DNA from: a virus
Strand: one strand, 5' to 3'
Virus genome (UHGV): UHGV-0196443
DNA: 38,343 nt
Shown here: one piece after another, positions 14,686 to 35,261 of the stretch
How the letters are laid out: each line of letters opens with the position of its first letter
Position numbering within the stretch: position 1 is the stretch's first letter
Program-made: the position numbers and the translations under genes
Notes under the pieces: model-generated
The model's input: the letters and a program-made list of their open reading frames with translations, nothing else
Database searches by the model: none
What the model was told of the DNA's origin: nothing

Positions 14686-15222
14686 TTATGCTGCAACTTC
14701 CTGATCTGGAATGTACACCTTATCAAACCATTTTTCGTATAAGTCATCTGTTGTATCTGCTGTTGTCTTTGCCCGAACTGCCATTTTCTTAGCTGTTCCA
14801 AGTTGTACAGCGGATGCAGAAACTGTGACAGTGTCAGTTGTAGGTTCAATCGCGTCCTCTGTTGTGCTGGATTCTGTTGTAGGACGTGTAGAGGTACAGC
14901 AATAGAACCAGAACCGTGTTCCCCTCACATCTCCGTCAATTTCAAATCCCAGCGCAAACCGTTTTACTTTTGCAGTCGCTTCCTCCAGCATGACTTTGTT
15001 CTTGTCAATGTATTCGCTCAAAATCTTTTCCCGGAACTCATCCGTGATCAGCGCCATTTCCCAGTCTCCCTCATATCCGCTATTGGAAGAAGAAACATAA
15101 TACTTGATTCCATCCGCATAAAACGGTGTCAGTTCTCCCTGTGCTTCCAGTGAAAGCGATACGGATCCAGGTACCGCAAACGGTGTATCAAATGTAATTT
15201 CTCCCGTGTCACTTTCCTGCAA
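14686..15222 (-). CDS. Major tail protein
   Basis: 178 aa immediately upstream of the chaperone genes. T/S-rich, beta-rich composition. Start appears to be TTG at 15222 (no in-frame ATG upstream). Confidence 0.7.
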   Translation of the reverse strand: MQESDTGEITFDTPFAVPGSVSLSLEAQGELTPFYADGIKYYVSSSNSGYEGDWEMALITDEFREKILSEYIDKNKVMLEEATAKVKRFALGFEIDGDVRGTRFWFYCCTSTRPTTESSTTEDAIEPTTDTVTVSASAVQLGTAKKMAVRAKTTADTTDDLYEKWFDKVYIPDQEVAA

Positions 15223-15294
15223 AAGCGCAACATGCGCATTATGGATATTGAATTTGACTTTATCCTTTTTTGTTGCCTGTCTTTCTTTCCTTAC

Positions 15295-15612
15295 TTAGCC
15301 CTCCACTTCATATAATACTTCATACATATTTTCTGATTTAATATACTGTTCACTTTTCTGCCAGAAGAGATCTGCTGCATCAAGTGCCGCTTCTACACGT
15401 TCTTCCAGTTCAAAGTCCTTTTCATCTGTGTACAGTTCAATATCAACTTTGTTTGATTTAAAATATACCTTCCCATCTGCGGAAAAATTTCTCGTTTCCG
15501 GAATCAACCAGCAAATAAAAGGAGGATTCACTGCCTCACGTTCTTCGAAATGATGATACCGATATTCAATTTCCAGTACATCCAGAATTGCTTCTATCCT
15601 CTCCCTTGTCAT
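15295..15612 (-). CDS. Putative tail terminator / tail-completion protein
   Basis: 105 aa, placed between the HK97-gp10-like gene and the major tail protein. Call is by position only. Confidence 0.35.
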   Translation of the reverse strand: MTRERIEAILDVLEIEYRYHHFEEREAVNPPFICWLIPETRNFSADGKVYFKSNKVDIELYTDEKDFELEERVEAALDAADLFWQKSEQYIKSENMYEVLYEVEG

Positions 15613-15992
15613 AAATATCGTTCTATCCTTTCCTGTAAAATTTCCTTTGCGTGCTTTTCTGCAATTTTGATATGCGGGATCCCGTCCACTCTTCCACCAT
15701 TCCTCTTTGCGTGTCCTTTTTCCAGCAAATGTGTAATTCGGTATTCCGGCTTTTTGGAATATACCACCATATCATAGCGGTGCCTTCCACTCAAATTTTT
15801 GTCTCGTTTATAGCTCCAGTGCTTTGCATATTCACCGGTATCTCCTTCCGGTGATATGGAACGTAATTCCGCAGCTGTCTGCTTCGCCGTCTCTTTCACT
15901 GCCTTTTCCACGGCTTCCTGTACATCCTCACGATACGCATCTAACTCCTGCATGACTTCGATTGCTAACTGATCAATATTAATTTTCGGCAT
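15609..15992 (-). CDS. HK97 gp10-like head-tail joining protein
   Basis: 127 aa. Position and KHWSYKRD...YSKKPEY pattern resemble the gp10 family. Overlaps neighbours by 4 nt and 14 nt. Confidence 0.5.
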   Translation of the reverse strand: MPKINIDQLAIEVMQELDAYREDVQEAVEKAVKETAKQTAAELRSISPEGDTGEYAKHWSYKRDKNLSGRHRYDMVVYSKKPEYRITHLLEKGHAKRNGGRVDGIPHIKIAEKHAKEILQERIERYL

Positions 15993-16413
15993 TGTCTCTC
16001 ACATCCTCATAAGTCGTTACTACCCTTTCCAGAGAAAGCAATAAACAGGGTGGCGTTTCATCGTATTTATTCTGGATCTGTATGATCTTGTACTGCTTTT
16101 CTCTGATTATGCAGATGTCCATCGTAGAAATGTCTTCTACCGGCAAAATTGCAACTACTTCGTCAATCTGATTGGATAATACCTTTGCCTCATAAAACCG
16201 TTTGATTCCTACTGTCCGAAACCCAAACCGGATTCCACAATGCTTTGTTTCTACAATTTTTCGCCCTTTCACGCTGCAGATATCCAACATTCCGTCATTA
16301 AATGTGACAAATTTTGTATCTTTACGTCTTGGCATCACAACCACCTGCTTTCCTCTGAAAACTGCGCATCTGCAGGGATATGATTTCTGATTTATAATTT
16401 TGAATAAACTCAT
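15979..16413 (-). CDS. Head closure / head-tail adaptor protein (Phage_H_T_join-like)
   Basis: 144 aa in the track. True start is probably the internal MPRRKDTKFVTF (about 118 aa), because the N-terminus overlaps the upstream gene. Confidence 0.5.
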   Translation of the reverse strand: MSLFKIINQKSYPCRCAVFRGKQVVVMPRRKDTKFVTFNDGMLDICSVKGRKIVETKHCGIRFGFRTVGIKRFYEAKVLSNQIDEVVAILPVEDISTMDICIIREKQYKIIQIQNKYDETPPCLLLSLERVVTTYEDVRDNAEN

Positions 16414-16618
16414 CTACCTGACCGGCTCTTGCATACATGCAGTAATTTAAGAGTAGCTCTTTTTCTTGTGTTTCGCTTTCAAAATCACAAAATCCTATTT
16501 TGCCCTCAAGGTACGCTTTTCCTCTCTCTACGATACCAGAGAGCTTTTTACGCTCCCTGATATCCATATCCCATGTAATATCCAGAAAATTCTTCACATC
16601 TTCTAACAGATCGCTCAT
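16322..16618 (-). CDS. Head-tail connector protein (gp6-like)
   Basis: 98 aa directly after the capsid gene. MSDLLEDVKNFLDITWDMDI... resembles gp6-like connectors. Confidence 0.6.
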   Translation of the reverse strand: MSDLLEDVKNFLDITWDMDIRERKKLSGIVERGKAYLEGKIGFCDFESETQEKELLLNYCMYARAGQVDEFIQNYKSEIISLQMRSFQRKAGGCDAKT

Positions 16619-16620
16619 GA

Positions 16621-18066
16621 TTATGCCTCATTCTTTGTTACAGTCACCTGATATGTCTTGGTTGTCTTTCCATCTGTCACTTTTGCTTTTACTACATTTC
16701 CTGCGCCGGAAGCCCATGTAACTCTGCTGCCGTTTGCAATCGGTTTGTCATTGTATGTCAATTCCAGTTCTGCAGTGCTGTCTGCGATTACCGCCTGCAC
16801 CGTGTTTGATGCGTCTGTTGTTGTCAGGGTGTATGTCAATTCTCCTTCTGTAAATTCTGGTGTCAGCGTGTGTCCACCCACCTTAAAATCTGCAAGATTT
16901 GCATTTTCCACATTTTCTACACTTGGAACAACTTCCACTTCATAATGCGCTGGCTGTAGATCACTGATGTTCAAAAGCATGAAGGCATTATCATCTACTG
17001 CAAATCCATGACCATACATTTTGATCAGGTAAACCCTCTCATCTTCCAGGAATCTGTAATCATCTGAATACAAGATTCTTCCGTTATTTTCGATTCCAGC
17101 TCCCATGAGGTAAAGCTTTGCCATACCAAATACAGCCTTTCCGACTCCTACCGCCGGAGACTGGATCACATCGATTGGGAATGGCAGTGTACTTACATAT
17201 CCACCGCCCGGCGCCGGTCTCTGTGTTGCCGGCAGGACTTTACTGAAATAATCTGACGGATTTACCACCAGAATCAGTGTGTCTACGGTTCTTGCCTGTC
17301 CTTTTTCATTGATTGCCAGAACAGATGCCAATTTTCCAAGCTGCACATCATTAAACTTTGTAACCTTTACTGCTTTTTTATCTGGATATACTCCACCCTT
17401 GATCGTAACAGAGTCTCCCACCTGTTTTGTCATACCGATTGGCATGTCTTTTCCAGTTCCATTGATGATACCGTCTTCCAATCCATTTGCAAGCGCTTCA
17501 TACAGAACCTGTCTCACATAAGCATCCAACCATTCTGGCCCCAGATCCAACATTGCTTTACACACCGGAAGAAATGCGGACAGTTTACTCAGTGTCACAT
17601 CTACCTCTTTAAATCCGGATGTCAGCTCCTGGATGATCTCTGCGCAAAGTTTTCCCCATGCTGCTTTCTGATATCCATTCGTATTCATCATCATTCGTGT
17701 CAACCCTGTTACGGATGTAAACTGGATTTTGGACAACAGCGGATGATCTGTTTTCAAATCTTCGAATACTTTGTCAATTACGGTATATGGCATTACCACA
17801 TCCAGATTTTCTACTGCCTGTTTCGGATTCGGTGCTTTCATGGCTTCTGCCAGTTTCTGATAATATTCTTTTTCTTTGGATGTCAGCTGTCTTACGCCGC
17901 GCTCAGACAGAATTCTCTGATCTGCTTCTTCTACGATTCCCCGTGCCTGTTCTATGACACTTTCCTGAATCTTATCGCACAGCTCCACAAACGCTGCCTG
18001 GAACTGCTCTGCATCTCCGGCTGTGATTGCCTCATTCATCTTCTGTACGATTGCTGTTTTTTCCAT
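16621..18066 (-). CDS. Major capsid protein (HK97 fold) with N-terminal delta/scaffold-like domain and C-terminal Ig-like domain
   Basis: 481 aa following the prohead protease. Helical N-terminal roughly 100 aa. C-terminal T/V-rich beta domain (TYQVTVTKNEA) resembles a Big_2 decoration domain. Confidence 0.85.
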   Translation of the reverse strand: MEKTAIVQKMNEAITAGDAEQFQAAFVELCDKIQESVIEQARGIVEEADQRILSERGVRQLTSKEKEYYQKLAEAMKAPNPKQAVENLDVVMPYTVIDKVFEDLKTDHPLLSKIQFTSVTGLTRMMMNTNGYQKAAWGKLCAEIIQELTSGFKEVDVTLSKLSAFLPVCKAMLDLGPEWLDAYVRQVLYEALANGLEDGIINGTGKDMPIGMTKQVGDSVTIKGGVYPDKKAVKVTKFNDVQLGKLASVLAINEKGQARTVDTLILVVNPSDYFSKVLPATQRPAPGGGYVSTLPFPIDVIQSPAVGVGKAVFGMAKLYLMGAGIENNGRILYSDDYRFLEDERVYLIKMYGHGFAVDDNAFMLLNISDLQPAHYEVEVVPSVENVENANLADFKVGGHTLTPEFTEGELTYTLTTTDASNTVQAVIADSTAELELTYNDKPIANGSRVTWASGAGNVVKAKVTDGKTTKTYQVTVTKNEA

Positions 18067-18089
18067 TTCTAATACATCTAAATTTTTCC

Positions 18090-18815
18090 TTAAATCATGC
18101 CTCCTCTAAAAAGATTTAATACATTGTTTTTTCTTGGTTTCTTGTCTTCCTGTGGTTTCTGCATTGCTGCAATCTGCTGCCGGAAGCTCTCCTGACTATT
18201 TAACTGTCTTTGCATATCGGACAGCTTCTCCAGAATCTCTTCTGTATTGACCGGTTCTGCTGTCTTTCCCATGATCTCATCAATGAGTCCATATTCCAGC
18301 GCCTTTTCCGGAGTGAGGTAAGTCTCATTTTCCATTAACTCAATCAACTCACTTTCCTCAATCTTCGCCCTTTCCAGAAAAACTTGCCGGTTTGCTTCCA
18401 TCATGTCATCCAGATCATCGGCATATTTTCTCAGTTGTGTTGCATTGCCCGAGCAATACATCCACATATTGTGTATCAGTGCCGTTGTACCTAAACACAT
18501 TTTTCTTGTGTCACACGCCTGTAGAATCAAAAACGCAACACTGTGTGCTACACCATCCACAATCCCGACTTTCTGGTTTTGTTTTTGCTTCAGTAAATTG
18601 TAAATAGCAACGCCCTCTTTTACGGATCCACCATTTGAGTTGATATGCAGCTCAATTGTCTGTCCTTCTGGAATTTCACTCAGTTTCTCTGCAAAATATT
18701 TCGCGGAAGTCTCCGAGTCCTTATATTCCCATGCGTTCCAGTCAAATTCTCCATATTCTGTCACATCATCATAAATGTACAGAAGTGTTTTGTTCTCTGC
18801 CTGAACAGGCTGCAT
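18090..18815 (-). CDS. Prohead protease, ClpP/S14 family
   Basis: 241 aa. INSNGGSV...GVAHSVAFLILQACD...MWMY matches the ClpP-like Ser/His region. Confidence 0.85.
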   Translation of the reverse strand: MQPVQAENKTLLYIYDDVTEYGEFDWNAWEYKDSETSAKYFAEKLSEIPEGQTIELHINSNGGSVKEGVAIYNLLKQKQNQKVGIVDGVAHSVAFLILQACDTRKMCLGTTALIHNMWMYCSGNATQLRKYADDLDDMMEANRQVFLERAKIEESELIELMENETYLTPEKALEYGLIDEIMGKTAEPVNTEEILEKLSDMQRQLNSQESFRQQIAAMQKPQEDKKPRKNNVLNLFRGGMI

Positions 18816-18856
18816 TCTCCAGTTTGTTATGTTTTTCCTTGTCTCACCTCTTTCCT

Positions 18857-18900
18857 GGTTTGATTTATAAAAAGAGCACCTACCATTTCTGATAGATGCT
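18857..18900 (-). terminator. Rho-independent terminator closing the moron, just upstream of the protease RBS
   Basis: Minus-sense AGAGCAUCUA-loop-UAGGUGCUCU (10 bp, one G.U) followed by UUUUUAUAAAU. Confidence 0.45.
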
Positions 18901-18920
18901 CTGATTACTGTATCTAATTT

Positions 18921-19163
18921 TTACAACATTTCCTGTATTTCCCTCAATTTATTTTGAGCCTTATAAGCCATATCCAGGATCATATTGGCTTTTACGCCTG
19001 CGTGTTTATAATACTCTCCATCAATCTTCCATATATCTTCTTTCCCATTTATGTCTTGTTCGAAATATTCCTGATCCAAATCATTGCTCAATACATAAAT
19101 TCTCTCAAGTATTATTTCTGCTTCACTTACAACATTACTAATTTTGATGTTTAATTCATTCAT
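18921..19163 (-). CDS. Hypothetical acidic protein (moron gene)
   Basis: 80 aa, AT-rich codon usage unlike the flanking head genes. ATGA overlap with the upstream gene. Confidence 0.45.
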   Translation of the reverse strand: MNELNIKISNVVSEAEIILERIYVLSNDLDQEYFEQDINGKEDIWKIDGEYYKHAGVKANMILDMAYKAQNKLREIQEML

Positions 19164-19393
19164 CTTATGCTCTCTCCTTCTGATTCTCTCAACATTTGCG
19201 CATACAAAAAGCCATTTCTAAATTCAAAATCTGATATAGCATTTATATATTCATCGAGAGCTCTTGAAAGATTACTTTCCGCTTTTCCTACTTCATCTGG
19301 GACCATCCAGTTAACATTCTCCATATAATCGCTACGAATCTGTTCAAGTTCCTGTTCTGTATATTTTTTCATCTCACAGCACCTCCGCGTCAA
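19160..19393 (-). CDS. Hypothetical protein (moron gene)
   Basis: 77 aa in the track. Likely start is the internal MKKYTEQ... (19372) with SD GGAGGTG 7 nt upstream. Confidence 0.45.
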   Translation of the reverse strand: MTRRCCEMKKYTEQELEQIRSDYMENVNWMVPDEVGKAESNLSRALDEYINAISDFEFRNGFLYAQMLRESEGESIR

Positions 19394-19949
19394 GAAACAT
19401 TCCTATTTGTTCATATTCTGGTCTTTTTGCAAAATTTGCAATCACTTTTATACCATATTGTTCGCAAATGAGTTTTGTATTTTCTGCAATTTCTTTCGGT
19501 GCCGACTGATTATTTTTCATGATTGTTGCAAGTGAATTGATCAATCGAGCAACTTCTCCCGGTTTATCTGTTATCGGTATTTGTGTTACCTGATGTTCCA
19601 TCTCATAAAAGCGTTTTACATATCTGGCAGTAAATAAAACGCCCTTTTCTCCAGTAGATTTATTTGCCAAAAAATCACAACCTAATTTTGTGACTTCATA
19701 ACACTTATTTTCTTTTCCGCTGATGTCTCGATATGTGGATGGAATAAAATAATCACTCACAGCCATTTGGCTCTCAGTCATAATCTGTATGTATCCCTTC
19801 CTATCTTTTCTTCCATCCAGTTTTCTCAAAATATCATTATGTGATATTTCCATCATATCTGCTACTTCCATTGTGGTAATTGTTGATTTCATTAAATCAT
19901 TCATAATAATAAAAACTCCTTTCAAATTCGTTCTTGAAAGAAGCTTCAT
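19374..19949 (-). CDS. Rha-family phage regulatory protein-like (putative antirepressor)
   Basis: TTMEVADMMEISHNDILRKLDGRKDRKGYIQIMTESQ...YEVTKLGCDFLANKSTGEKGVLFTARYVKRFYEMEH matches the Phage_pRha pattern. Likely start at 19905 (MNDLMKST, SD GAAAGGAG). Confidence 0.55.
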   Translation of the reverse strand: MKLLSRTNLKGVFIIMNDLMKSTITTMEVADMMEISHNDILRKLDGRKDRKGYIQIMTESQMAVSDYFIPSTYRDISGKENKCYEVTKLGCDFLANKSTGEKGVLFTARYVKRFYEMEHQVTQIPITDKPGEVARLINSLATIMKNNQSAPKEIAENTKLICEQYGIKVIANFAKRPEYEQIGMFLDAEVL

Positions 19950-19961
19950 TCTGCATTATAA
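19933..19961 (+). promoter_or_regulatory. Consensus sigma70-type promoter on the plus strand (TTGAAA-17-TATAAT)
   Basis: ttgaaa (19933-19938), 17-nt spacer, tataat (19956-19961). Opposite orientation to all surrounding genes. Confidence 0.45.
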
Positions 19962-19967
19962 TATTTA

Positions 19968-20035
19968 CAGAAGGAAACTTCTTTGTGTGAACAACCGTTG
20001 ATACTGTGGTAGGTGCGACGGTTGTTTTATTTTTT
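19968..20035 (+). ncRNA. Candidate cis-antisense small RNA (about 68 nt) opposite the Rha-like gene leader
   Basis: Runs from the promoter above to an intrinsic terminator: AACAACCGT (19990-19998) / ACGGTTGTT (20018-20026), 9-bp stem, then TTATTTTTTG. No plus-strand ORF. Confidence 0.35.
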
Positions 20036-20212
20036 GTCCAATTCAGCTTGTACTAAATCAATTCCATGATTTATAACATCCGTCTTGCTTACCTCCATTT
20101 TGTCTGCGCAATATTGAAGCTTTTCAGCTTCCTGTGGTGTCAGACGTATTTCAAGACGCTCTGTCTTTTTATTCGCTGTTGGACGTCCTGTTCTTGGGGA
20201 CATTATCTTCAC
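20027..20212 (-). CDS. Ribbon-helix-helix (CopG/Arc-like) DNA-binding protein
   Basis: 61 aa. ...RLEIRLTPQEAEKLQYCADKMEVSKTDVINHGIDLV fits the RHH beta-alpha-alpha pattern. SD GAGGTGA. Confidence 0.6.
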   Translation of the reverse strand: MKIMSPRTGRPTANKKTERLEIRLTPQEAEKLQYCADKMEVSKTDVINHGIDLVQAELDKK

Positions 20213-20221
20213 CTCACTTTC

Positions 20222-20247
20222 GCCCGTACATAAGTTATAACATATGT
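20222..20247. promoter_or_regulatory. 26-bp near-perfect palindrome overlapping the RHH promoter (candidate autoregulatory operator)
   Basis: CGTACATA-AGTTATAACA-TATGTACG, with 8-bp perfect arms and an inner GTTATAAC palindrome. It overlaps the -10 (TATAAC) of a TTTACT-17-TATAAC minus-strand promoter, about 25 bp upstream of the RHH ATG. Confidence 0.45.
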
Positions 20248-20299
20248 ACGTACAAAAGTAAAGAGGTTTTTAAAATTTTTCCACCCTACCTTATGGAAT

Positions 20300-20345
20300 T
20301 AAAATAAGACACAGCATTTCGCCATGTCTTTCGGTGCTTTCCGGG
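20300..20345 (-). terminator. Terminator-like hairpin after the portal gene
   Basis: Minus-sense AAGACAUGG...CUGUGUCUU stem followed by AUUUUAAUU, directly after the portal stop. Confidence 0.35.
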
Positions 20346-20385
20346 GAGATCAGGAACATACCCTGAAAGGACTCCTCCCCTATTT

Positions 20386-21561
20386 TCAATTTTCTTCATT
20401 TTTCACACGCTCCCCTGCCAAATCAGAAAGCAGGTCTTGAATCTTACTATAATTTTTCGTCATAAAGTGCTGGTTTGCCCAGTCTTCTTCAATTCTCGGT
20501 TTTCCGAGCACTTCCAAAATATCATTGATCGTGAATGCTCCGCTTGAGATCAGCTTGTCTACTGGAGTTGCAATATCAAAAATATCAATATGCTTGACTG
20601 CCAGAGTCTCTATCTTCACATAATTTCCTGCTTTAAATCCTTTGTATCCATTTCTCTTTCGGTTGATCTCCTGCTGCAGCATCTTAATGAGCGGATCTAT
20701 CACAAAGGTCAGAAGTTCATCAATCGCTTTCCCTGTATCCTGTACATCTCCTTTGGCCAGACTCGGCGGGAAAGAAAATGCTCTTGCTGTAAATTCAAAG
20801 ATGTCATCAGCTAGAGACTTGATATCTCGTGTTGACTCTGTAGAATACGTCTTTCCGCTTTCTGAAATATCCTGATATTCGTATCCGTCAAATAATGGCA
20901 ACACCGCACTGTCGCTTTCAAAGAAGTTCTTAAAATGCGTGCTCATCAACTCCTGGAATGTTTCATCGAAATTCTCACTTTCCTGTGCAATTGCTCCAAT
21001 ATTCAGGATTCCTTTTTTTCCTCTTGATTTTTTATAGGCATCCTGCGCATATATCAGTAATTTTGAATACGTTTCATACATCCCATTTGTGAGATTCCTC
21101 ATATTCTCTGAATTTAATTCAAAAAACATGACTTCCGACATTTCCCGTGTTTCAGGCAATTCGTAACCGTCAAATGTGATCCCGCTGAATCTGTACTCCT
21201 TCAATGCCAGTACCTCTTTGCTGTAACTGTCTGCCACATAAATGTGATTGTTTACTTCTACCACAAGGCATTCATTGTTCCGGTACAGCTTGCCAATCAG
21301 CTTATTCATGAATGATGTTGCATTCTGATTCTGATTTGGTTCGTAATTCCAAAGATAATACTCCTGTCCTTTTACCTCTTTCTTCTTGATATACGTTTTA
21401 AATTCACATTTGCTGATGGCATTTGCAATTTTATTGACACAAGTCCAGAAAGCCAGCTCTCTCAGATACACTTCGTACATAGCACTCTGCACATCTTTAT
21501 CTTTCATAATGTCATCCACTGTAATCCTTGTGGTACTGCTGCCTCCAAGTTTTTTGATCAA
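20386..21561 (-). CDS. Portal protein (HK97-family-like)
   Basis: 391 aa between TerL and the head genes. Size and composition are typical. Confidence 0.8.
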   Translation of the reverse strand: MIKKLGGSSTTRITVDDIMKDKDVQSAMYEVYLRELAFWTCVNKIANAISKCEFKTYIKKKEVKGQEYYLWNYEPNQNQNATSFMNKLIGKLYRNNECLVVEVNNHIYVADSYSKEVLALKEYRFSGITFDGYELPETREMSEVMFFELNSENMRNLTNGMYETYSKLLIYAQDAYKKSRGKKGILNIGAIAQESENFDETFQELMSTHFKNFFESDSAVLPLFDGYEYQDISESGKTYSTESTRDIKSLADDIFEFTARAFSFPPSLAKGDVQDTGKAIDELLTFVIDPLIKMLQQEINRKRNGYKGFKAGNYVKIETLAVKHIDIFDIATPVDKLISSGAFTINDILEVLGKPRIEEDWANQHFMTKNYSKIQDLLSDLAGERVKNEEN

Positions 21562-21597
21562 CCAGTCTTTAATACTTAATTTCCTACATTCACCCCC

Positions 21598-23310
21598 TTA
21601 ATAATTATAAACCTGTATTTTCGGTGTTGGTTTTGCCCGTTTCTGCGGCAGCACGTTTTCCACAGTCATCGCCGCTACAAATGCCATAAATGGGTCTGTT
21701 TTTCTGCTTTTTCCTTCTATTTTTCCATATACATAATTTCCCATATCGGCATCATCCTCTTTTCCTGGTTTTCTTCCATGCCTGATTAGTTTTGCATTAT
21801 TGGTGGCCCACCTTAATTCTGGAGCATCTCCCCACCGTAACCATTTATTTACAAAGCAGCTATCAATCAGAGGTGCCACTTTCATAATGTCTGATGGCCG
21901 GATCAGCTTCAGATTCTTATTTACTTTCATATCAAAACCTATTTCCTGCAGATATTTCCCGATCAATGCGAAACGAAAATCATCCAAGGCCAAAGCTTTG
22001 ATATTGTAGGTGCGTTTTGCTTCCTGTATATAATTTGTAAGCAATGACGGATGTATTTCCACGTCATCTACAAGCGTCAATCTTCCGGAATCCGCCCACT
22101 CTTTCCATGGAGCCTTTATCCTCGGAATGTCTTTCGAATTTAGGCACATCCATGAATGGCTGATGTCAAACCGTTCATCTCCATCTCGGAAATGAAGATC
22201 TACGGAAGCCCAATCTGTTAATTTTGTATAATCAATTCCACAAACACAGCTCCATCTTTCCAGATCCGGCAGTAAGATATTGGTCGCTTTGATATTATCC
22301 CACTCCGTCACACTCATTTCTTCTGCATTTTCTGGAATATTCATTCGCTTTGTCATGAATGCCGGAAGTCTTCTCGGATTTTTCTTCCATTCCCGGTATT
22401 CTTTTCTGATCTCTTCCATAAGACTTGGCAGGTATGGTAACGATGGATTTGCCATCGGCCAGTTTTCTTCCTGATCCACATCTTCCTTTTTATTCAGTTT
22501 ACAGATAAATGGTAACAACCCATTATCCGGTTCGCCACCCCGTAATATCTGTTCGGATGTTTCCAGTAGATCATCCAGCGGTCCTTCCCGCACGTCACCA
22601 TTTGTCGTGTAATAAGAACGCCTTGGATGTTTCTTCTTACCAAGTCCTGTTGTAAAGACGTTTATATTCTTATAGTCTTCATATTGATGGATCTCATTAA
22701 AAATACATATTCCGGAACGAAGACCGTCTTTTCCTTTCGGACTGTTTGTTCTTCCCTTCATAATAGACTTTGTTTTTAAGCATAAAACCTGTTCCTTCGT
22801 CCATCGGAAGAATTTCTTTAATTTCTTTATCACAGATGGGCGCTCAAATGCATTGATCACATCATGAACCGGCCGCATTGCCTGGTCCTCATTATTGGCA
22901 CAGATATCTACATCGTACTCTCTGATTCCATTATGCGGGGACATTAAACACACTGATTCGAGCGCAATTGTACCATCTTTTCCCGCTCCTCTCCCCAACA
23001 TACAGAATAAATCCGGCCATCTTGGAAGCCCGGATTCTCTCCAATATGTGCAATCGTGAAGTCCGATCACAAACTTCTGCCAGGGAAATATTTCTACAAA
23101 CGGGAAGTATTTTGACATCCCGATATATTTCTCCAACTGATCACAATCTATATAAATATCTTCATGCTCAAAACACCATTTTACATGCGCAACAAGCAGC
23201 TCCTGCTCTTCGCATACTGCATAGATTTTTTTCTCAACTATATCAATCCATTCCTGAATATATGGATGTATGTTACAGCTCATCTTCATCATCTCCCGAA
23301 TCATCGCCAA
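21598..23310 (-). CDS. Terminase large subunit
   Basis: 570 aa. N-terminal ATPase with Walker A-like GRGAGKDG. C-terminal nuclease-like region with acidic residues. Overlaps TerS. Confidence 0.9.
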   Translation of the reverse strand: MAMIREMMKMSCNIHPYIQEWIDIVEKKIYAVCEEQELLVAHVKWCFEHEDIYIDCDQLEKYIGMSKYFPFVEIFPWQKFVIGLHDCTYWRESGLPRWPDLFCMLGRGAGKDGTIALESVCLMSPHNGIREYDVDICANNEDQAMRPVHDVINAFERPSVIKKLKKFFRWTKEQVLCLKTKSIMKGRTNSPKGKDGLRSGICIFNEIHQYEDYKNINVFTTGLGKKKHPRRSYYTTNGDVREGPLDDLLETSEQILRGGEPDNGLLPFICKLNKKEDVDQEENWPMANPSLPYLPSLMEEIRKEYREWKKNPRRLPAFMTKRMNIPENAEEMSVTEWDNIKATNILLPDLERWSCVCGIDYTKLTDWASVDLHFRDGDERFDISHSWMCLNSKDIPRIKAPWKEWADSGRLTLVDDVEIHPSLLTNYIQEAKRTYNIKALALDDFRFALIGKYLQEIGFDMKVNKNLKLIRPSDIMKVAPLIDSCFVNKWLRWGDAPELRWATNNAKLIRHGRKPGKEDDADMGNYVYGKIEGKSRKTDPFMAFVAAMTVENVLPQKRAKPTPKIQVYNY

Positions 23311-23662
23311 CCGGCTTAATTCCTAGGCTGTCCAGTATTTTAAGCATTTGAGCATTGACCTTAATCCTCTGATCTATCGAGTCATTTTTCTTTTGCCCTT
23401 TTTGACCTCCTCCATTATTATATTCAACGATAGCGCCTCTCTTTTTAATGTCTGCGATCAGTTCGTTCTCCAGGTCCCAGAAGTCCATATATTTATCGAC
23501 CAAGTCGATGTAATATTTCCCTGTGGTTCCATTCCGGGCCAGCTGATCAAGAAGGTCCTCTTTAATTTCCACTCGCAATAATTCTTTTCTTGTTTTTCTC
23601 GCCCTTATACCACCCCCTCCGTCACGCGCGCACGAGAAATTTCTTTTGTCGGGAGCACCCAC
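23273..23662 (-). CDS. Terminase small subunit (P27/Terminase_4-like)
   Basis: 129 aa. The C-terminal NAQMLKILDSLGIKP pattern is typical of P27-family TerS. The track start is GTG, and the true start is uncertain. Confidence 0.6.
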   Translation of the reverse strand: MGAPDKRNFSCARDGGGGIRARKTRKELLRVEIKEDLLDQLARNGTTGKYYIDLVDKYMDFWDLENELIADIKKRGAIVEYNNGGGQKGQKKNDSIDQRIKVNAQMLKILDSLGIKPVGDDSGDDEDEL

Positions 23663-23730
23663 CGGTCTCTACGGGGCAAATTAAAACCCGATTTTTTCGA
23701 CCGGGGGTATCCTGACAATTTGATTCTTCT

Positions 23731-24069
23731 TTACCATTTTTCCTCTGTCAGCGGTTCTTTTTTCTTTTGCTTTCGATATCCATGAACCTCTTCATGACAA
23801 TCATGACACAGACTGATCAGGTTTCTCCGTTTCTCACCTCTGAAGCTGTACCAGATTTCCAATGCTTTATCTGGATGCTTCTTTACATAATTCACATGAT
23901 GAACCGTCGTTGCCTTTGTATACTTTCCACGTTTCTTACATAACTGACATTCATATTTATCAAGCTTTAACACCTGTTCTCTCAATGCTTTCCACTTGCC
24001 CCATGTATAGAATCTGTGGATATTTTCTCTTATGCATTTCTTTACAAATGCAATCTCATGTTCTGTCAT
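23731..24069 (-). CDS. HNH endonuclease (terminase-associated)
   Basis: 112 aa. CQLC...HHVNY...N...CHDCHEEVH is a zinc-finger HNH motif. Sits immediately upstream of TerS, the arrangement typical of cos phages. Confidence 0.85.
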   Translation of the reverse strand: MTEHEIAFVKKCIRENIHRFYTWGKWKALREQVLKLDKYECQLCKKRGKYTKATTVHHVNYVKKHPDKALEIWYSFRGEKRRNLISLCHDCHEEVHGYRKQKKKEPLTEEKW

Positions 24070-24082
24070 ATTCTCACCTCAA

Positions 24083-24154
24083 TTGCAGGAGAAGGAATCG
24101 AACCTTCGACCTTCAGCTAAGGAGACTGACGAGCTTCCACTGCTCTATCCTGCT
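24083..24154 (-). tRNA. tRNA-Arg(CCU)-like gene (72 nt cloverleaf with A1.A72 mismatch, no encoded CCA)
   Basis: Minus-sense folds by hand as AGCAGGA-UA-GAGC-AGUGGAA-GCUC-G-UCAGU-CUCCUUA-GCUGA-AGGUC-GAAGG-UUCGAUU-CCUUC-UCCUGCA-A. D, anticodon and T arms are canonical, with U33 and anticodon CCU. Position 37 is U and the 1-72 pair is mismatched. Confidence 0.45.
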
Positions 24155-24255
24155 ATATTTGTGCGATGTCGCACAGTGTAGGCTTTTGCCCAGAGCCTTT
24201 TATCGTCTTTGCTCAGGACGCAGAAAAGCATCCGGCTTTCGCCAGATGCTCTCTG

Positions 24256-24462
24256 CTATTTTCCATTATTCACTTCTTCTACAAATTGCTTCATCAGCTT
24301 TGTAAGCTGTGTTCCCATCGCAACACCAGATTCTTTGCAGGCTTCCTTGAACTCTTCTGCTACTTTCTTGTTAATCTTATATGTTTTTGGAACTAACCCT
24401 GCTTTCTCATCCCACTTATCTTGTGGTCTCTGTTTCTTTTCTTCATTACCGAGCATGCTCAT
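24256..24462 (-). CDS. Ribbon-helix-helix-like small DNA-binding protein
   Basis: 68 aa. KTYKINKKVAEEFKEACKESGVAMGTQLTKLMKQFVEE fits a beta-strand plus two helices (Arc/MetJ/CopG-like). Followed by a terminator-like hairpin (AGCAUC...GAUGCU UUUCUG). Confidence 0.45.
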   Translation of the reverse strand: MSMLGNEEKKQRPQDKWDEKAGLVPKTYKINKKVAEEFKEACKESGVAMGTQLTKLMKQFVEEVNNGK

Positions 24463-24543
24463 CCCTCACTTTCTTTATGAGGCAATAAACCAGCTTTGCT
24501 ATTCCTATAGCAATGAAGAATATTCCTAACTTCCACAACATCC

Positions 24544-24572
24544 TTTACACAAATGAGCTTTCATGTTATATT
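24544..24572 (+). promoter_or_regulatory. Plus-strand promoter with extended -10 (TTTACA-17-TGtTATATT) facing the small peptide gene
   Basis: tttaca (24544-24549), 17-nt spacer, tgt-tatatt (24564-24572). Convergent with the minus-strand peptide ORF. Confidence 0.4.
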
Positions 24573-24574
24573 TA

Positions 24575-24715
24575 TTTTGAAGAAGGGCTTTCGCCCCTCT
24601 TAGCTAATTAAATAGCTTGTCGAGAATCATTAAAAGGATTCCAACGAATAAGTCCAGAATCGCACTGACCGCCAATGTCTTTATATCGATTTTGGACTTT
24701 TTCTTTTGTTTCTTT
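24575..24715 (+). ncRNA. Candidate antisense RNA covering the 38-aa peptide ORF (type-I antitoxin-like)
   Basis: Runs from the promoter above to a plus-strand intrinsic terminator. GTCCAGAATCG (24649-24659) / CGATTTTGGAC (24683-24693) forms an 11-bp stem with one G.U, followed by TTTTTCTTTTGTTTCTTTTTG. The terminator lies inside the peptide ORF on the opposite strand. Confidence 0.35.
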
Positions 24716-24722
24716 TTGCTCA
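24606..24722 (-). CDS. 38-aa Lys-rich single-TM peptide (MSKKKQKKKSKIDIKTLAVSAILDLFVGILLMILDKLFN), type-I toxin-like or holin-like
   Basis: Not in the track (<60 aa). Strong SD GGAGGTGA 8 nt upstream of the ATG. Consensus promoter and palindromic operator upstream. Fully covered by the convergent antisense unit. Confidence 0.45.
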
Positions 24723-24748
24723 TTTGTATCTCACCTCCTTACAACTAT

Positions 24749-24777
24749 ATAATACCACATACGTATACGTATGTCAA
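24749..24777 (-). promoter_or_regulatory. Minus-strand promoter TTGACA-17-TATTAT with an 18-bp perfect palindrome in the spacer
   Basis: -35 at plus 24772-24777, -10 at plus 24749-24754. The spacer contains ACATACGTATACGTATGT (24756-24773), a perfect palindrome and candidate operator. Confidence 0.45.
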
Positions 24778-24799
24778 CACTTTTCTCAGAGGTTTTTAA

Positions 24800-24872
24800 T
24801 CCGGACAACGGGAATCGAACCCGTGACACACAGCTTATAAGGCTGCCGCTCTGACCGATTGAGTTATGTATC
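24800..24872 (-). pseudogene. Decayed tRNA remnant (intact T-arm and anticodon arm, acceptor stem unpaired)
   Basis: Minus-sense ...GCAGC-CUUAUAA-GCUGU-GUGUC-ACGGG-UUCGAUU-CCCGU-UGUCCGG-A. The 5' half (GGAUACAUAACUCAAUCGGUCAGAGC) looks like a mutated D-arm, and the 5' acceptor strand does not pair with the 3' strand. Confidence 0.3.
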
Positions 24873-24888
24873 CATATTTTTGTATTAG

Positions 24889-24912
24889 AAAAGACGCCCT
24901 AATGGACGTCTT
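24889..24912 (-). terminator. Rho-independent terminator downstream of the ATPase/TOPRIM cassette
   Basis: AAGACG-CCCTAATGGA-CGTCTT hairpin. The minus sense is followed by UUUUCUAAUAC. Confidence 0.45.
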
Positions 24913-25134
24913 ACATTTGTCTCATCTTCACATCAACTGCCTCTTTTCTGGCATTATGATGCTGGTTCTGATTCTCCGGCTTTACCTTTTGAGTAATGCT
25001 GTTGAATTTTTCATTGCTTTTCTTTCTGTTTGACTTCTCTTGATCCTTCCTATCCACTTTCCTCACCTCAGATATAGTATGTGAAGAATGGAATGTTTTA
25101 TGTATTGAAAAAGCTCCATAAAAGATACTTTCCT

Positions 25135-34092: not shown

Positions 34093-34815
34093 TCAAATTC
34101 TCCTGTTCAAACGGATCAGGATGTATCTTCGGTATTTGTATCCTGTTACCGGATTGATCCCTTCATGGTACGTCTCTTTATCTAGGTAGTATCCTTTTGG
34201 TGGCTTCGGCTCATCTTTCCATGTTTTCCTTTTGTAAATCTTCACTTCTGCCACCGGAATCTTTAAATTCCTGCTACAGGAGTACCGGCTCTCTTTCAGC
34301 TTGTTTTCTTCATCCGGCGTTTTACTTAAATACTCAGCCAGTTTCCGCAAGCCTCCCTCGTCATACAACAGATCGATGTGGACGCCTCCCTTTTCCCATG
34401 CTCTGCGCATGATCAGATCTGCATCCGGAATCCGGTTGATGACCAGATGGTGATGAACCCCGCCCCGACTTCCAATCTCGGTATGCAGCATCCATTTCAA
34501 CTCCACTTCCTGTTTTTTGTATTGTGTGCGTACTTTCTGAATCCACTTTCGGATGTCTTTGGCCGCTTCTTTCATGTCCTGTGGCCGGTTCTCCAATTTA
34601 TAAGTTAATGTCACCCAGTAGTCATTCTCCCGGAAATTCAGCTTCATCTTTCTCCAGCACTGCCGTTCTTTATTCCACTGATTCGTCTTCCTGATCTGCT
34701 CCGGTGTGGCTTTCTTCTTTTTCATTCTCGGCATTCCCGGAGCACCATATCTCCCGTTGTGATACTCCATCACTTCTCTGATGTCTCCCAGGTCATAACT
34801 CTTTTGTTTATACAT
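34093..34815 (-). CDS. HUH-superfamily rolling-circle replication initiator (Rep)
   Basis: 240 aa. Motif 1-like WVTLTY, motif 2 GGVHHHLVI (HUH), motif 3 AEYLSKT (YxxK). Confidence 0.6.
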   Translation of the reverse strand: MYKQKSYDLGDIREVMEYHNGRYGAPGMPRMKKKKATPEQIRKTNQWNKERQCWRKMKLNFRENDYWVTLTYKLENRPQDMKEAAKDIRKWIQKVRTQYKKQEVELKWMLHTEIGSRGGVHHHLVINRIPDADLIMRRAWEKGGVHIDLLYDEGGLRKLAEYLSKTPDEENKLKESRYSCSRNLKIPVAEVKIYKRKTWKDEPKPPKGYYLDKETYHEGINPVTGYKYRRYILIRLNRRI

Positions 34816-34881: not shown

Positions 34882-34910
34882 TTTGACATTTTGCCAATAC
34901 AGGTGTACAA
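34882..34910 (+). promoter_or_regulatory. Consensus plus-strand promoter TTGACA-17-TACAAT upstream-antisense to Rep
   Basis: ttgaca (34882-34887), 17 nt, tacaat (34905-34910). A 9-bp inverted repeat TTGCCAATA (34889-34897) / TATTGGCAA (34937-34945) spans it. Confidence 0.45.
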
Positions 34911-34916
34911 TATAAA

Positions 34917-34985
34917 TGAACTTTTATTTTGTTTGTATTGGCAAAATATCCGGTGCATCTGTTTGCGGCAGGTGCACTAATTTTT
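34917..34985 (+). ncRNA. Candidate countertranscript (ctRNA-like) small RNA antisense to the Rep leader
   Basis: Promoter as above. Intrinsic terminator GTGCATCTG-tttgcgg-CAGGTGCAC (9 bp, one G.U) followed by TAATTTTTTACGCTTTTTT. No convincing ORF. Confidence 0.4.
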
Positions 34986-35261
34986 TACGCTTTTTTCTAT
35001 GTACCTGCAGCTAAGTTCTAATCCCGCTGTCAGAAGGATCATTCCTATCCATAATGATCCGGTTCCCATCATCATGACTGCACAGATTCCCAATGTGGCT
35101 TCCAGGATCCTCAGTAATTCTTCTGCATACCGAAGCTGTCTTCTCTTCCGGAAACTCATACGATGATGTACTCTCCCCCGATCTCTTCTGCTACCTGCTT
35201 CGCTTCCTGGTACGTCCCATACTCGCTCCGGATCTTTCCGGATTGCCAGCGAATGATCCAT
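34977..35261 (-). CDS. Hypothetical small membrane protein
   Basis: 94 aa with a C-terminal hydrophobic segment. Arg-rich N-terminus. Weak support. Confidence 0.3.
   Translation of the reverse strand: MDHSLAIRKDPERVWDVPGSEAGSRRDRGRVHHRMSFRKRRQLRYAEELLRILEATLGICAVMMMGTGSLWIGMILLTAGLELSCRYIEKSVKN

Follow-up and report, generated by a model that had tools for sequence, protein, structure and literature searches.

On the plus strand of the virus genome UHGV-0196443, a predicted promoter (TTGAAA-17 nt-TATAAT, 19934-19962) lies upstream of a strong hairpin and a U-run, in the spacer of a two-gene cassette that is read in the opposite direction. This raises the question of whether the spacer encodes an antisense RNA and how such an RNA could act on the genes around it. 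The complete stretch of DNA that was analysed, 38,343 nucleotides long, is called the window here. The initial annotation had proposed a self-contained plus-strand unit, opposite to every neighbouring gene, that produces a ~68-nt cis-antisense RNA. All neighbours are indeed on the minus strand, and the existence of the unit is supported by the conservation of promoter, terminator and fold in relatives.

Organization of the cassette

The cassette forms a moron between the portal gene and a protease gene of a Clostridia-type phage and contains the following features:

20306..20330, minus strand: terminator after the portal gene (terminator scan), upstream edge of the moron
20222..20263, minus strand: cassette promoter TTTACT-17-TATAAC, the -10 of which is flanked by an inverted repeat (GTACGTAC ... 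GTACGGGC)
20027..20203, minus strand: ribbon-helix-helix (RHH) repressor-like gene encoding 58 aa, the first in the cassette, with a weak NikA-like Pfam match
19374..19904, minus strand: Rha-family cargo gene, 176 aa from the ATG at 19904 (Pfam PF09669, E = 7.9e-20)
18873..18902, minus strand: terminator that follows two small ORFs and marks the downstream edge of the moron, ahead of a ClpP-like protease gene

The AlphaFold model of the RHH protein has a beta-alpha-alpha topology (pLDDT 85), and its top fold matches in the PDB were ParG, CopG, TacA and AtaR. A sequence search of the PDB with the RHH profile returned nothing meaningful. RHH homologues fall into 235 clusters, some of which are present on hundreds of contigs. 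Upstream of these homologues the consensus cTTGACttttGCCCGTAC..GTTATtAT..GTACGGGC is kept, and the inverted repeat at the cassette promoter is presumed, from its sequence, to be the RHH operator. Phage homologues of the Rha gene are annotated as antirepressor or Rha, and the cargo domains across the cassettes are mostly of the antirepressor type (Rha, Bro-N plus ANT/KilAC, and ORF6N).

The combination of an RHH repressor, the predicted antisense RNA and a variable cargo gene occurs in many gut Clostridia phages. The same leader was found with different RHH genes (loci L002, L003 and L027) and also with different cargo genes (L020, L021 and L027), and the boundaries of the module fall on recombination breakpoints. 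Judged from these sequences, the cassette is modular, with RHH and cargo genes swapped around one spacer.

Promoter, terminator and fold of the predicted antisense unit

The predicted antisense unit is composed of these elements:

19934..19939, plus strand: -35 hexamer TTGAAA (sequence and promoter scan); the TTG is invariant in 38 of 38 related loci
19957..19962, plus strand: -10 hexamer TATAAT, 17 nt past the -35 and within the loop of a sense-leader hairpin
19969..20036, plus strand: predicted antisense RNA, non-coding and about 67 nt long, its 5′ end inferred 7 nt past the -10 and its 3′ end within the U-run
19969..19982, plus strand: SL1, AGAAG-GAAA-CUUCU followed by UU (RNAfold), containing the anti-SD-like motif ACUUCUUU (CCUCC in relatives)
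19989..20027, plus strand: SL2, the terminator hairpin, extended to 12+4 bp (RNAfold and covariance model)
20028..20036, plus strand: U-run of the terminator within the run TTATTTTTTG (20027-20036), complement of the RHH TAA stop and the last Lys codons

The promoter had initially been described as a perfect sigma70 consensus. The hexamers and their spacing were confirmed and agree with a sigma-70/sigma-A promoter (TTGACA-like and TATAAT-like hexamers 16-18 bp apart), but the promoter scan gave a match of 11/12, with 5/6 in the -35. Within 15000-25000 only two sites scored 11/12, the antisense promoter included, and this 10-kb scan yielded 30 promoter-like sites versus 25.1 expected from shuffles. 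A lone 11/12 promoter is weak evidence by itself.

We therefore rely on the relatives, as the conservation of promoter, terminator and fold in diverged loci indicates that the antisense unit is more than chance. In all 38 loci with RHH homologues (54-100% amino acid identity), the antisense strand carries TTGnnn and TAnnAT, usually separated by 17 bp (17 nt in 35 of the 38). The mean best promoter score of these loci was 11.07 on the antisense strand, compared to 7.87 on the sense strand and 8.09±0.95 in shuffles. The distance from the -10 to the RHH stop is 60-77 nt, with a single exception of 91 nt. The spacer between the hexamers varies freely in sequence, whereas the hexamers are kept at one position and on one strand. 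A TGn extension of the -10 is present in most relatives and absent from the window's own promoter, and a conserved ATTTAC follows the -10 in the related loci.

In SL2, AACAACCGT (19990-19998) pairs with ACGGTTGTT (20018-20026). This is the 9-bp stem that had been placed 30 nt past the -10; the stem is present, but the distance is 27 nt. On the plus strand the 12+4 bp hairpin followed by UAUUUUUUG has the properties of an intrinsic terminator, which a simple terminator scan (loops of 3-8 nt) overlooked because the 19-nt loop folds further. The region 19968-20037 folds with -24.2 kcal/mol (RNAfold; z = -4.15), and none of 200 shuffles was as stable. All 34 distinct predicted RNAs have the same architecture of 5′ stem-loop, terminator hairpin and U-run (mean z = -4.82), and the SL1 motif AAACCUCC / AAACUUCU is aligned throughout the family.

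MAFFT plus RNAalifold on full RNAs and hairpins recovered only 7 pairs, with register shifts, and a covariance-model alignment was used instead. In this alignment the covariation of the terminator helix was 0.586, compared to 0.217±0.017 in shuffled alignments (reached in 0 of 500) and 0.095-0.173 in slid controls; 82.9% of the cells in the helix were paired versus 62.5% after shuffling, and compensatory changes were observed in 10 of 10 outer-helix pairs of SL2, all of these being counts from a model-fitted alignment of related sequences, which leans towards the modelled structure. The covariance model R1 matches the window at 19989-20037 (plus strand), but with only 20.2 bits and E = 0.24. 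Two further features are directional: in antisense orientation the helix contains 85 G·U versus 12 A·C, and the 9 nt after the hairpin contain on average 6.7 T on the antisense strand versus 0.95 on the sense strand (37 distinct hairpins). An AAA versus AAG codon test for selection on the U-run, which also encodes a Lys codon pair, was not significant (p = 0.065) and is suggestive only. The apical SL2 motif CUU-N3-AGG-N-GGC is conserved as well, which helix formation alone is insufficient to explain. A sense terminator of the RHH gene was rejected, since the sense side has no U-run and the G·U asymmetry is opposite. Taken as comparative sequence evidence, these data indicate that promoter, terminator, RNA fold and strand are under selection.

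A search of the entire window against Rfam at the gathering score detected two tRNAs only, and at E ≤ 10 the region 19800-20350 gave chance-level matches, with none to sar or other relevant families. The transcript had been described as free of ORFs. It contains neither an ATG nor an SD-preceded start, although a mechanical 70-aa plus-strand ORF (19789-20001) that starts upstream of the promoter overlaps it. A type I toxin-antitoxin system was rejected, as the overlapped genes encode the 58-aa RHH and 176-aa Rha proteins and 19905-20026 contains no small hydrophobic ORF. The same design had also been noted elsewhere in the window, and this holds for at least one location, 34883-34990, upstream of a Rep-like gene.

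Predicted competing folds of the sense leader

As initially proposed, the predicted RNA is complementary to the Rha leader and to the RHH stop region, where its 3′ end extends over the stop codon and the two full codons that precede it (about 9 nt). The ribosome-binding site of Rha, on the other hand, is not covered. The predicted 5′ end of the RNA (19969) is located ~47-53 nt from the Rha SD, with its own -35 and -10 in between, and the RNA stops short of the SD in all 32 loci analysed. An effect of the RNA on Rha would therefore have to be indirect, with leader refolding, processing or interference as likely routes. Two hairpins are predicted in the leader:

19940..19981, minus strand: anti-sequestor hairpin of the sense leader (centroid structure), enclosing the antisense -10
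19912..19947, minus strand: alternative hairpin GAAGCUUCUUUCAA...UUGAAAGGAGUUUU (MFE structure), a terminator-like site in the scan, followed by U-rich sequence

The left arm of the anti-sequestor hairpin, GAAGUUUC-C-UUCUGUA, resembles a decoy SD and is located inside the target of the antisense RNA. Its right arm, UGCAGAA-U-GAAGCUUC, contains an anti-SD and doubles as the spacer of the antisense promoter. In the alternative hairpin the Rha SD AAAGGAG (19916-19922) is sequestered. These two folds compete in the window, the SD hairpin being the MFE and the decoy hairpin the centroid structure.

MAFFT plus RNAalifold gave no consensus for the sense-leader hairpin, and the analyses were anchored on the promoter hexamers instead. 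Each of the 29 distinct leaders has a hairpin around the antisense -10 (mean z = -3.93). In 23-28 of the 29 loci, spacer positions 5-15 take part in pairing, yet all four bases are found at each of them. Decoy and anti-SD arms from the same locus pair with -18.5 kcal/mol versus -10.3 kcal/mol for non-cognate combinations, and the negative control gave -6.1 versus -6.2 kcal/mol. Pairing of the anti-SD with the SD region is moderately specific (cognate -11.9 versus non-cognate -8.2 kcal/mol; median cognate rank 5 of 28). When the target of the RNA was masked, the predicted probability of an unpaired SD dropped from 0.38 to 0.17; it fell in 23 of 32 loci and rose in one, and in 8 of the 32 a closed SD is predicted irrespective of the RNA. 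The U-rich tail after the SD hairpin occurs in some family members only and is absent in several relatives. Counts of G·U in the inverted repeat that flanks the -10 reveal no strand bias (38 versus 33), so that selection on the sense strand at the RNA level is argued rather than shown.

All in all, we find it fairly probable, from sequence conservation and modelling, that the spacer harbours a real small cis-antisense RNA gene, the RNA of which refolds the leader upon binding and thereby represses the Rha-type gene. The part of this reading that concerns repression by refolding is what we infer purely from thermodynamic prediction. The operon's own promoter, with its palindromic operator, would transcribe the RHH repressor gene followed by the Rha-type gene, while the predicted sigma-A/sigma-70 promoter inside the spacer would drive the ~67-nt antisense RNA. 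In the first fold of the leader the decoy SD (AAAGAAG...) would pair with the anti-SD (CUUCUUU...), which keeps the true SD accessible; in the second fold, in which the hairpin is terminator-like in the window, the anti-SD would pair with the true SD (AAAGGAG). The antisense RNA, being fully complementary to the decoy arm, would release the anti-SD and so close the ribosome site. Translation of Rha would be repressed, transcription might also be attenuated, and messages reading in from the late operon would be silenced as well. Together with RHH autorepression this would amount to dual control by protein and RNA. That the RNA is a candidate regulator of the moron, as initially suggested, is supported by the comparative evidence, its function being deduced from it.

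An unlikelier explanation, though the strongest of the others, is that the antisense RNA is real and works without a leader switch. The RNA and the operon transcript are perfectly complementary over 68 nt, and RNase III or another double-strand-specific nuclease might cleave the duplex 19969-20036, uncoupling and destabilizing the Rha part of the message or trimming the RHH message. Convergent transcription might interfere, given that the cassette and antisense promoters face each other ~260 nt apart, or the CCUCC/CUUCU motif of the 5′ stem-loop might bind the SD directly, a pairing energy of -11.5 kcal/mol being predicted between the SD region and the first 25 nt of the RNA. All three routes are used by known antisense systems (PMC5415839). 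However, direct SD pairing is barely cognate-specific (-11.5 versus -9.7 kcal/mol; median rank 9 of 28), and the presence of a dedicated, covarying terminator, which ends the RNA precisely at the RHH stop, speaks for a defined RNA product and against interference by transcription as such. Moreover, without the switch the conserved, covarying decoy/anti-SD hairpin would be left without a purpose.

We consider it improbable that the RNA mainly serves other ends, either by acting on the RHH message (its 3′ end, its stability or its level) or as a trans-acting anti-SD sRNA on phage or host messages. The overlap with the RHH stop and the last two full codons, the apical SL2 motif beyond the needs of the helix, and the CCUCC of SL1, which is a generic anti-SD, would fit such roles. 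The coding overlap is merely ~9 nt, however, and the module stays directly upstream of the cargo SD even where an unrelated RHH gene has been substituted. Least credible of all, with very little probability left to it, is that no functional RNA exists and that the repeats are DNA-level or sense-RNA features (a protein operator, a junction at which modules recombined or an mRNA stabiliser located after RHH) with the hexamers as a by-product of the AT-rich leader: promoter-like sites are no commoner than in shuffles, the module boundaries are recombination breakpoints and the -10 repeat has no strand bias, but TTG-17-TAnnAT recurs at one position and on one strand in 38 loci with a variable spacer, the U-run is on the antisense side only, and the G·U excess over A·C follows the antisense orientation. 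In its operator version, this explanation is contradicted by repeats that differ between loci with near-identical RHH proteins, while the presumed RHH operator GCCCGTAC is conserved; a protein operator at the -10 repeat was rejected for the same free variation in sequence.

Relation to known control systems

The layout of the cassette, which we read as an RHH gene, a leader-refolding antisense RNA and an antirepressor-type gene, resembles two known systems. In phage P22 the ant moron in the late operon consists of the RHH autorepressor gene arc, the spacer antisense RNA sar and the antirepressor gene ant, and sar RNA blocks antirepressor synthesis (PMC2629481, PMC13397905). The P22 immI layout is matched here in the order of its elements and in the terminator-flanked position between portal and protease, autorepression being presumed. 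The sar RNA, the sequence of which begins AUUCAU...UCUCC, covers the SD and start codon of ant (PMC13397905, Table 2), whereas the RNA described here stops well short of the Rha SD. In addition, P22 has a Gram-negative host and not a Clostridia host, its antirepressor belongs to a different family from Rha, Bro-N and ORF6N, no equivalent of its second repressor Mnt was identified in the cassette, and the P22 sar Rfam family gave no match.

In plasmid pMV158 (copG-RNAII-repB) the RHH repressor gene also comes first and a countertranscript from the spacer represses translation, with a target upstream of the repB translation signals that does not overlap them (PMC4485353). RNAII and the RNA in the window have in common a 5′ segment, a terminator hairpin and a U-tail, as well as a target upstream of the SD, and CopG superposes on the RHH model with an rmsd of 1.1 Å at 28-30% identity. 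RNAII is 48 nt long with a single-stranded tail, however, while the RNA here is ~67 nt long and has a structured 5′ stem-loop. The target here, unlike that in pMV158, ends ~50 nt short of the SD and is separated from it by the promoter of the RNA itself, and the leader is predicted to form a three-part switch; no sequence or Rfam relation between the two RNAs was detectable. The controlled genes differ too, a replication initiator in pMV158 and a Rha-family phage antirepressor-type protein here.

Mutually exclusive leader folds are known from the antisense-induced transcription attenuation of pT181 and pIP501, in which the countertranscript binds the upstream arm and a downstream hairpin then forms directly in front of the gene (PMC5415839). 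The competing leader folds, and in the window the U-rich tail after the SD hairpin, are similar. In contrast to pT181 and pIP501, the SD itself is part of the downstream hairpin here, which makes translational occlusion a simpler reading than attenuation. By analogy with P22 and pMV158, the antisense RNA probably keeps the downstream gene off. Dual control, as in P22 Arc/sar/Ant and pMV158 CopG/RNAII/RepB, might then result in a brief pulse or in tight silencing of the antirepressor-type gene.

More tentatively, and with less confidence than in the antisense gene itself, the spacer may be a portable three-state riboregulator, a plug-in moron controller with exchangeable RHH repressors in gut Clostridia phages. 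Within ~120 nt it would combine the antisense gene, a promoter placed in the loop and arm of the sense hairpin, the decoy SD, the anti-SD and the true SD, and the terminator U-tract would be encoded by the final Lys codons of the repressor gene. Its known or possible cargo would comprise antirepressors, small proteins without a known function and perhaps mini-CRISPR arrays.

In the literature searched, the coverage of which is incomplete, the module has not been described for Gram-positive phages. On the basis of the sequence comparisons, we regard it as a novel and widespread family of antisense RNAs and as a new form of a known control design. This family is defined from sequence and has a clear, testable anatomy, and adding it to RNA databases could improve the annotation of gut viromes. 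P22, pMV158 and the gut Clostridia phages are three unrelated mobile elements that apparently converged on one design, an RHH repressor with a spacer antisense RNA. The natural part of ~120 nt, with promoter, terminator and switch, could be reused in engineering.

Whether a prophage remains silent is decided by antirepressor-type genes. To our knowledge, hardly anything has been learned so far about how these genes are controlled in temperate phages of gut Clostridia, abundant as such phages are. If the proposal of a portable riboregulator is true, the module would be an undescribed RNA family with a mechanism of its own, and it may largely determine the lysis-lysogeny behaviour of Oscillospiraceae and Lachnospiraceae phages in the human gut.

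Gene context of the antisense unit

The antisense unit lies on the plus strand and is opposite to all neighbouring genes, as the initial annotation had stated. A self-contained insert sits between the portal and protease genes. Its parts are listed in minus-strand order, followed by the antisense elements as read from the DNA.

Late genes, parts of the insert and elements of the antisense unit
21598-23310, minus strand: large terminase
20386-21561, minus strand: portal (PF04860)
20330-20306, minus strand: insert, terminator
~20222-20263, minus strand: insert, promoter with inverted repeat around the -10
20027-20203, minus strand: insert, 58-aa RHH gene
Between the RHH and Rha genes, minus strand: insert, 122-nt spacer
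19374-19904, minus strand: insert, Rha-family gene (PF09669, E = 8e-20)
Sixth part, minus strand: insert, two small ORFs, no Pfam family
18902-18873, minus strand: insert, terminator
18090-18815, minus strand: ClpP-type prohead protease
16621-18066, minus strand: capsid
19934-19939, plus strand: -35 hexamer TTGAAA
19957-19962, plus strand: -10 hexamer TATAAT, 17 nt after the -35
19990-19998 / 20018-20026, plus strand: inverted repeat AACAACCGT / ACGGTTGTT
20027-20036, plus strand: U-run TTATTTTTTG

Judged by its AlphaFold model (beta-alpha-alpha, pLDDT 85), the 58-aa protein is an RHH protein: the best PDB fold matches were all RHH (ParG, CopG, TacA, AtaR), with CopG at 28-30% identity and an rmsd of 1.1 Å. 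Based on the gene context and this fold, the antisense unit was assigned to the spacer of an RHH-Rha moron within the late operon. An inverted repeat (GCCCGTAC...GTACGGGC) flanks the -10 of the first-gene promoter and is conserved, a sequence arrangement that fits autorepression by the RHH protein. The RHH promoter/operator region (~20212-20282) is 82% identical to an unannotated stretch of Fusobacterium phage Funu2 (KR131711, 8556-8628) and 77% identical to a human faecal phage record. Two tRNA genes (24083-24154 and 24802-24873, minus strand; Rfam RF00005, 55.9 and 50.9 bits) are located upstream of the terminase region.

The promoter scan rated the antisense promoter 11/12, and only two sites in 15000-25000 scored that high. 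The proposed plus-strand unit of promoter and terminator was confirmed, apart from details: the sigma-70 consensus, described as perfect, is matched at 5/6 positions of the -35, and the distance from the -10 to the start of the stem is 27 nt instead of 30 nt. RNAfold of 19968-20037 predicted a small 5′ stem-loop (AGAAG-GAAA-CUUCU), a longer hairpin of 12+4 bp (19989-20027) and the U-run (-24.2 kcal/mol, z = -4.15).

Conservation of the promoter and the hairpin

Both strands downstream of the RHH stop codon were scored in 38 loci (RHH 54-100% identical). The mean best sigma-70-type score was 11.07 on the antisense strand, compared to 7.87 on the sense strand and 8.09 ± 0.95 in shuffled sequence. 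The -35 starts with TTG in all 38 loci, 35 of which have a promoter spacer of 17 nt; the -10 reads TAnnAT, usually with TGn in front, and a conserved ATTTAC follows just past it. The -10 is 60-77 nt from the RHH stop codon, with a single exception of 91 nt. When the loci were aligned on the hexamers, the hexamer positions were conserved, while the spacer between them was free to vary. By these alignments, the antisense promoter is conserved across related loci.

All 34 distinct predicted RNAs share one predicted fold, in which a 5′ stem-loop precedes a long hairpin with its U-run (z-scores -3.4 to -6.4, mean -4.82). The covariance model R1, which describes the hairpin with its tail, matched the expected site in related loci, and in the window it matched 19989-20037 on the plus strand with 20.2 bits. 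Standard pairs fill 82.9% of cells in the model alignment versus 62.5% in shuffles, and the covariation score is 0.586 versus 0.217 ± 0.017 (0/500 shuffles reach it; slid controls 0.095-0.173). Compensatory changes were found in 10/10 outer-helix pairs. All of these counts are tilted in favour of the structure, as the alignment is model-fitted and the sequences are related. Second tandem copies of the R1 match occur in three loci (L035 2254-2301, L044 1311-1360, L048 2017-2064), and in L035 a small cargo ORF is duplicated too.

Two counts are independent of the alignment and both identify the strand. Among the paired cells, 85 are G·U and 12 are A·C when read in antisense orientation, and the 9 nt after the hairpin contain 6.7 T on the antisense strand versus 0.95 on the sense strand. 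Because of this asymmetry and the strand-limited U-run, we interpret the hairpin as a one-way terminator of the antisense transcript; a role as terminator of the RHH gene was rejected on the same two counts. We regard it as very probable that the mini transcription unit is a genuine antisense RNA gene.

On the opposite strand, the U-run corresponds to the RHH stop codon and C-terminal Lys codons. Of the Lys codons under the U-run, 30/34 are AAA versus 75/104 internal ones (p = 0.065), an excess that is suggestive only. The hairpin apex (20006-20017 and homologous tips in A4, the alignment of hairpin homologues) has a conserved motif, CUU-N3-A-GG-N-GGC, with a near-invariant U·G pair. This motif goes beyond the needs of terminator function and may be a recognition loop or protein-binding site.

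A predicted switch in the sense leader

The RNA stops short of the Rha ribosome site; its own promoter lies between the RNA start (19969) and the SD (19916-19922). Two competing folds are predicted for the sense leader. In the centroid fold, GAAGUUUC-C-UUCUGUA (19981-19966) pairs with UGCAGAA-U-GAAGCUUC (19955-19940), the second arm being the spacer of the antisense promoter. In the MFE fold, GAAGCUUCUUUCAA pairs with UUGAAAGGAGUUUU and the SD is buried; this hairpin (19947-19912) is also among the terminator-like sites of the scan. The leader would thus contain a three-part switch of decoy SD (AAAGAAG), anti-SD (CUUCUUU) and true SD (AAAGGAG), with the antisense RNA complementary to the decoy arm. 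The same design occurs with other sequences in L051 (GACAGAA / UUCUGUC / AACAGGAG) and L034 (CCGGAGGU / ACCUCCCGG / CAGGAGGU).

A hairpin around the antisense -10 was predicted in 29/29 distinct leaders (mean z -3.93; 27/29 below -2), and each of positions 5-15 of the promoter spacer forms a pair in 23-28 of the 29 loci despite all four bases occurring at every position. For the repeat around the -10, the G·U counts (38 vs 33) do not favour either strand. When the RNA target was masked, the SD was predicted to be unpaired with a probability of 0.17 instead of 0.38; among 32 loci this probability went down in 23 and up in one, and some leaders are predicted closed both with and without the RNA.

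Pairing energies of leader arms (kcal/mol)
Decoy arm and anti-SD arm: cognate -18.5, non-cognate -10.3
Anti-SD arm and SD region: cognate -11.9, non-cognate -8.2
Decoy arm and SD region (negative control): cognate -6.1, non-cognate -6.2

Direct pairing of the RNA 5′ motif with the SD (-11.5 vs -9.7 kcal/mol) is possible but generic in these predictions. The leader switch, which we infer from a thermodynamic model, is the best-supported mechanism by which the RNA would repress the downstream antirepressor-type gene. The full reading, a genuine antisense RNA gene that represses this gene via the leader switch, is one that we favour by a modest degree.

Distribution, modularity and known systems

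Homologues of the RHH protein fall into 235 clusters, mainly from gut metagenomes and some on hundreds of contigs. A profile search added 34 genome loci (Oscillospiraceae, Lachnospiraceae, Agathobacter, Lawsonibacter and others) and 28 viral loci. Cargo genes adjoin the spacer or are separated from it by a small ORF of 55-90 aa, and their domains are Rha, Bro-N with or without ANT/KilAC, and ORF6N; the remaining cargo genes have no Pfam family. Rha, Bro-N, ANT/KilAC and ORF6N are usual antirepressor-type domains. In another genomic context (L009, L012, L015), a leader with a long hairpin (GGCAAGGATAGGG...CCTTGCCTATTC) is conserved ~150 nt upstream of the Rha homologues (locus ~2350-2500), without an Rfam match at gathering score.

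Near-identical viral contigs show that the spacer is a separate module. In L002, L003 and L027 the Rha gene or leader is retained and the first gene and its operator are different; their outer hairpin stem is GAAGUAC/GUACUUC instead of AACAAC/GUUGUU, with the inner part and U-run unchanged. L020, L021 and L027 keep the spacer and have a different downstream gene, with the breakpoint within the loop of the SD-holding hairpin. Two unrelated first genes (RHH, or a protein with operator TTACGCGTAAC) and two unrelated cargoes (Rha, or a 223-aa protein of unknown function) occur in all four combinations around the same spacer (L002/L003/L027, L020/L021, window 19905-20026), with recombination breakpoints located in the terminator hairpin (outer stem) and the SD hairpin (loop). 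In a MAG contig (L031, 1687-1920), an RHH homologue of 81% identity is immediately followed by 3-4 CRISPR-like direct repeats, 34 nt each and 66-67 nt apart, in place of the antisense-RNA spacer and protein cargo.

The suggested recurrence of the design at the Rep gene was borne out by a second plus-strand mini unit with the same layout (34883-34990), which, like the main unit, resembles pMV158. Two hairpins come after its promoter (TTGACA-17-TACAAT), and the second of them is GGUGCAUCUG...CAGGUGCAC plus UAAUUUUUU (-22.4 kcal/mol, z = -3.6). The unit runs antisense to the spacer that separates a 94-aa ORF (34977-35261, minus strand) from a 240-aa ORF (34093-34815, minus strand) that has an HUH-like motif and resembles a rolling-circle Rep.

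In P22, the antirepressor gene ant belongs to a late-operon moron, the ant moron, together with the antisense RNA sar and two RHH repressors, mnt and arc (PMC2629481), and sar pairs with ant mRNA and blocks Ant translation (PMC13397905). In pMV158, repB is controlled by the RHH repressor CopG and the 48-nt RNAII. This RNA comes from the copG-repB spacer, has a 5′ tail, terminator hairpin and U-tail, and targets a site that shortly precedes the translation signals of repB (PMC4485353). Antisense-induced attenuation operates in pT181 and pIP501 (PMC5415839). In the order of its genes the window module matches P22 immI, and in the layout of its RNA it matches pMV158. However, sar overlaps the SD whereas the window RNA does not, and the pMV158 cargo is a replication initiator, unlike that of the window. 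No Rfam family matches the antisense module, and searches of a literature collection that is not complete turned up no such module in Gram-positive phages. The RNA family to which the window RNA belongs is new and widespread, and it varies a control design that is already known.
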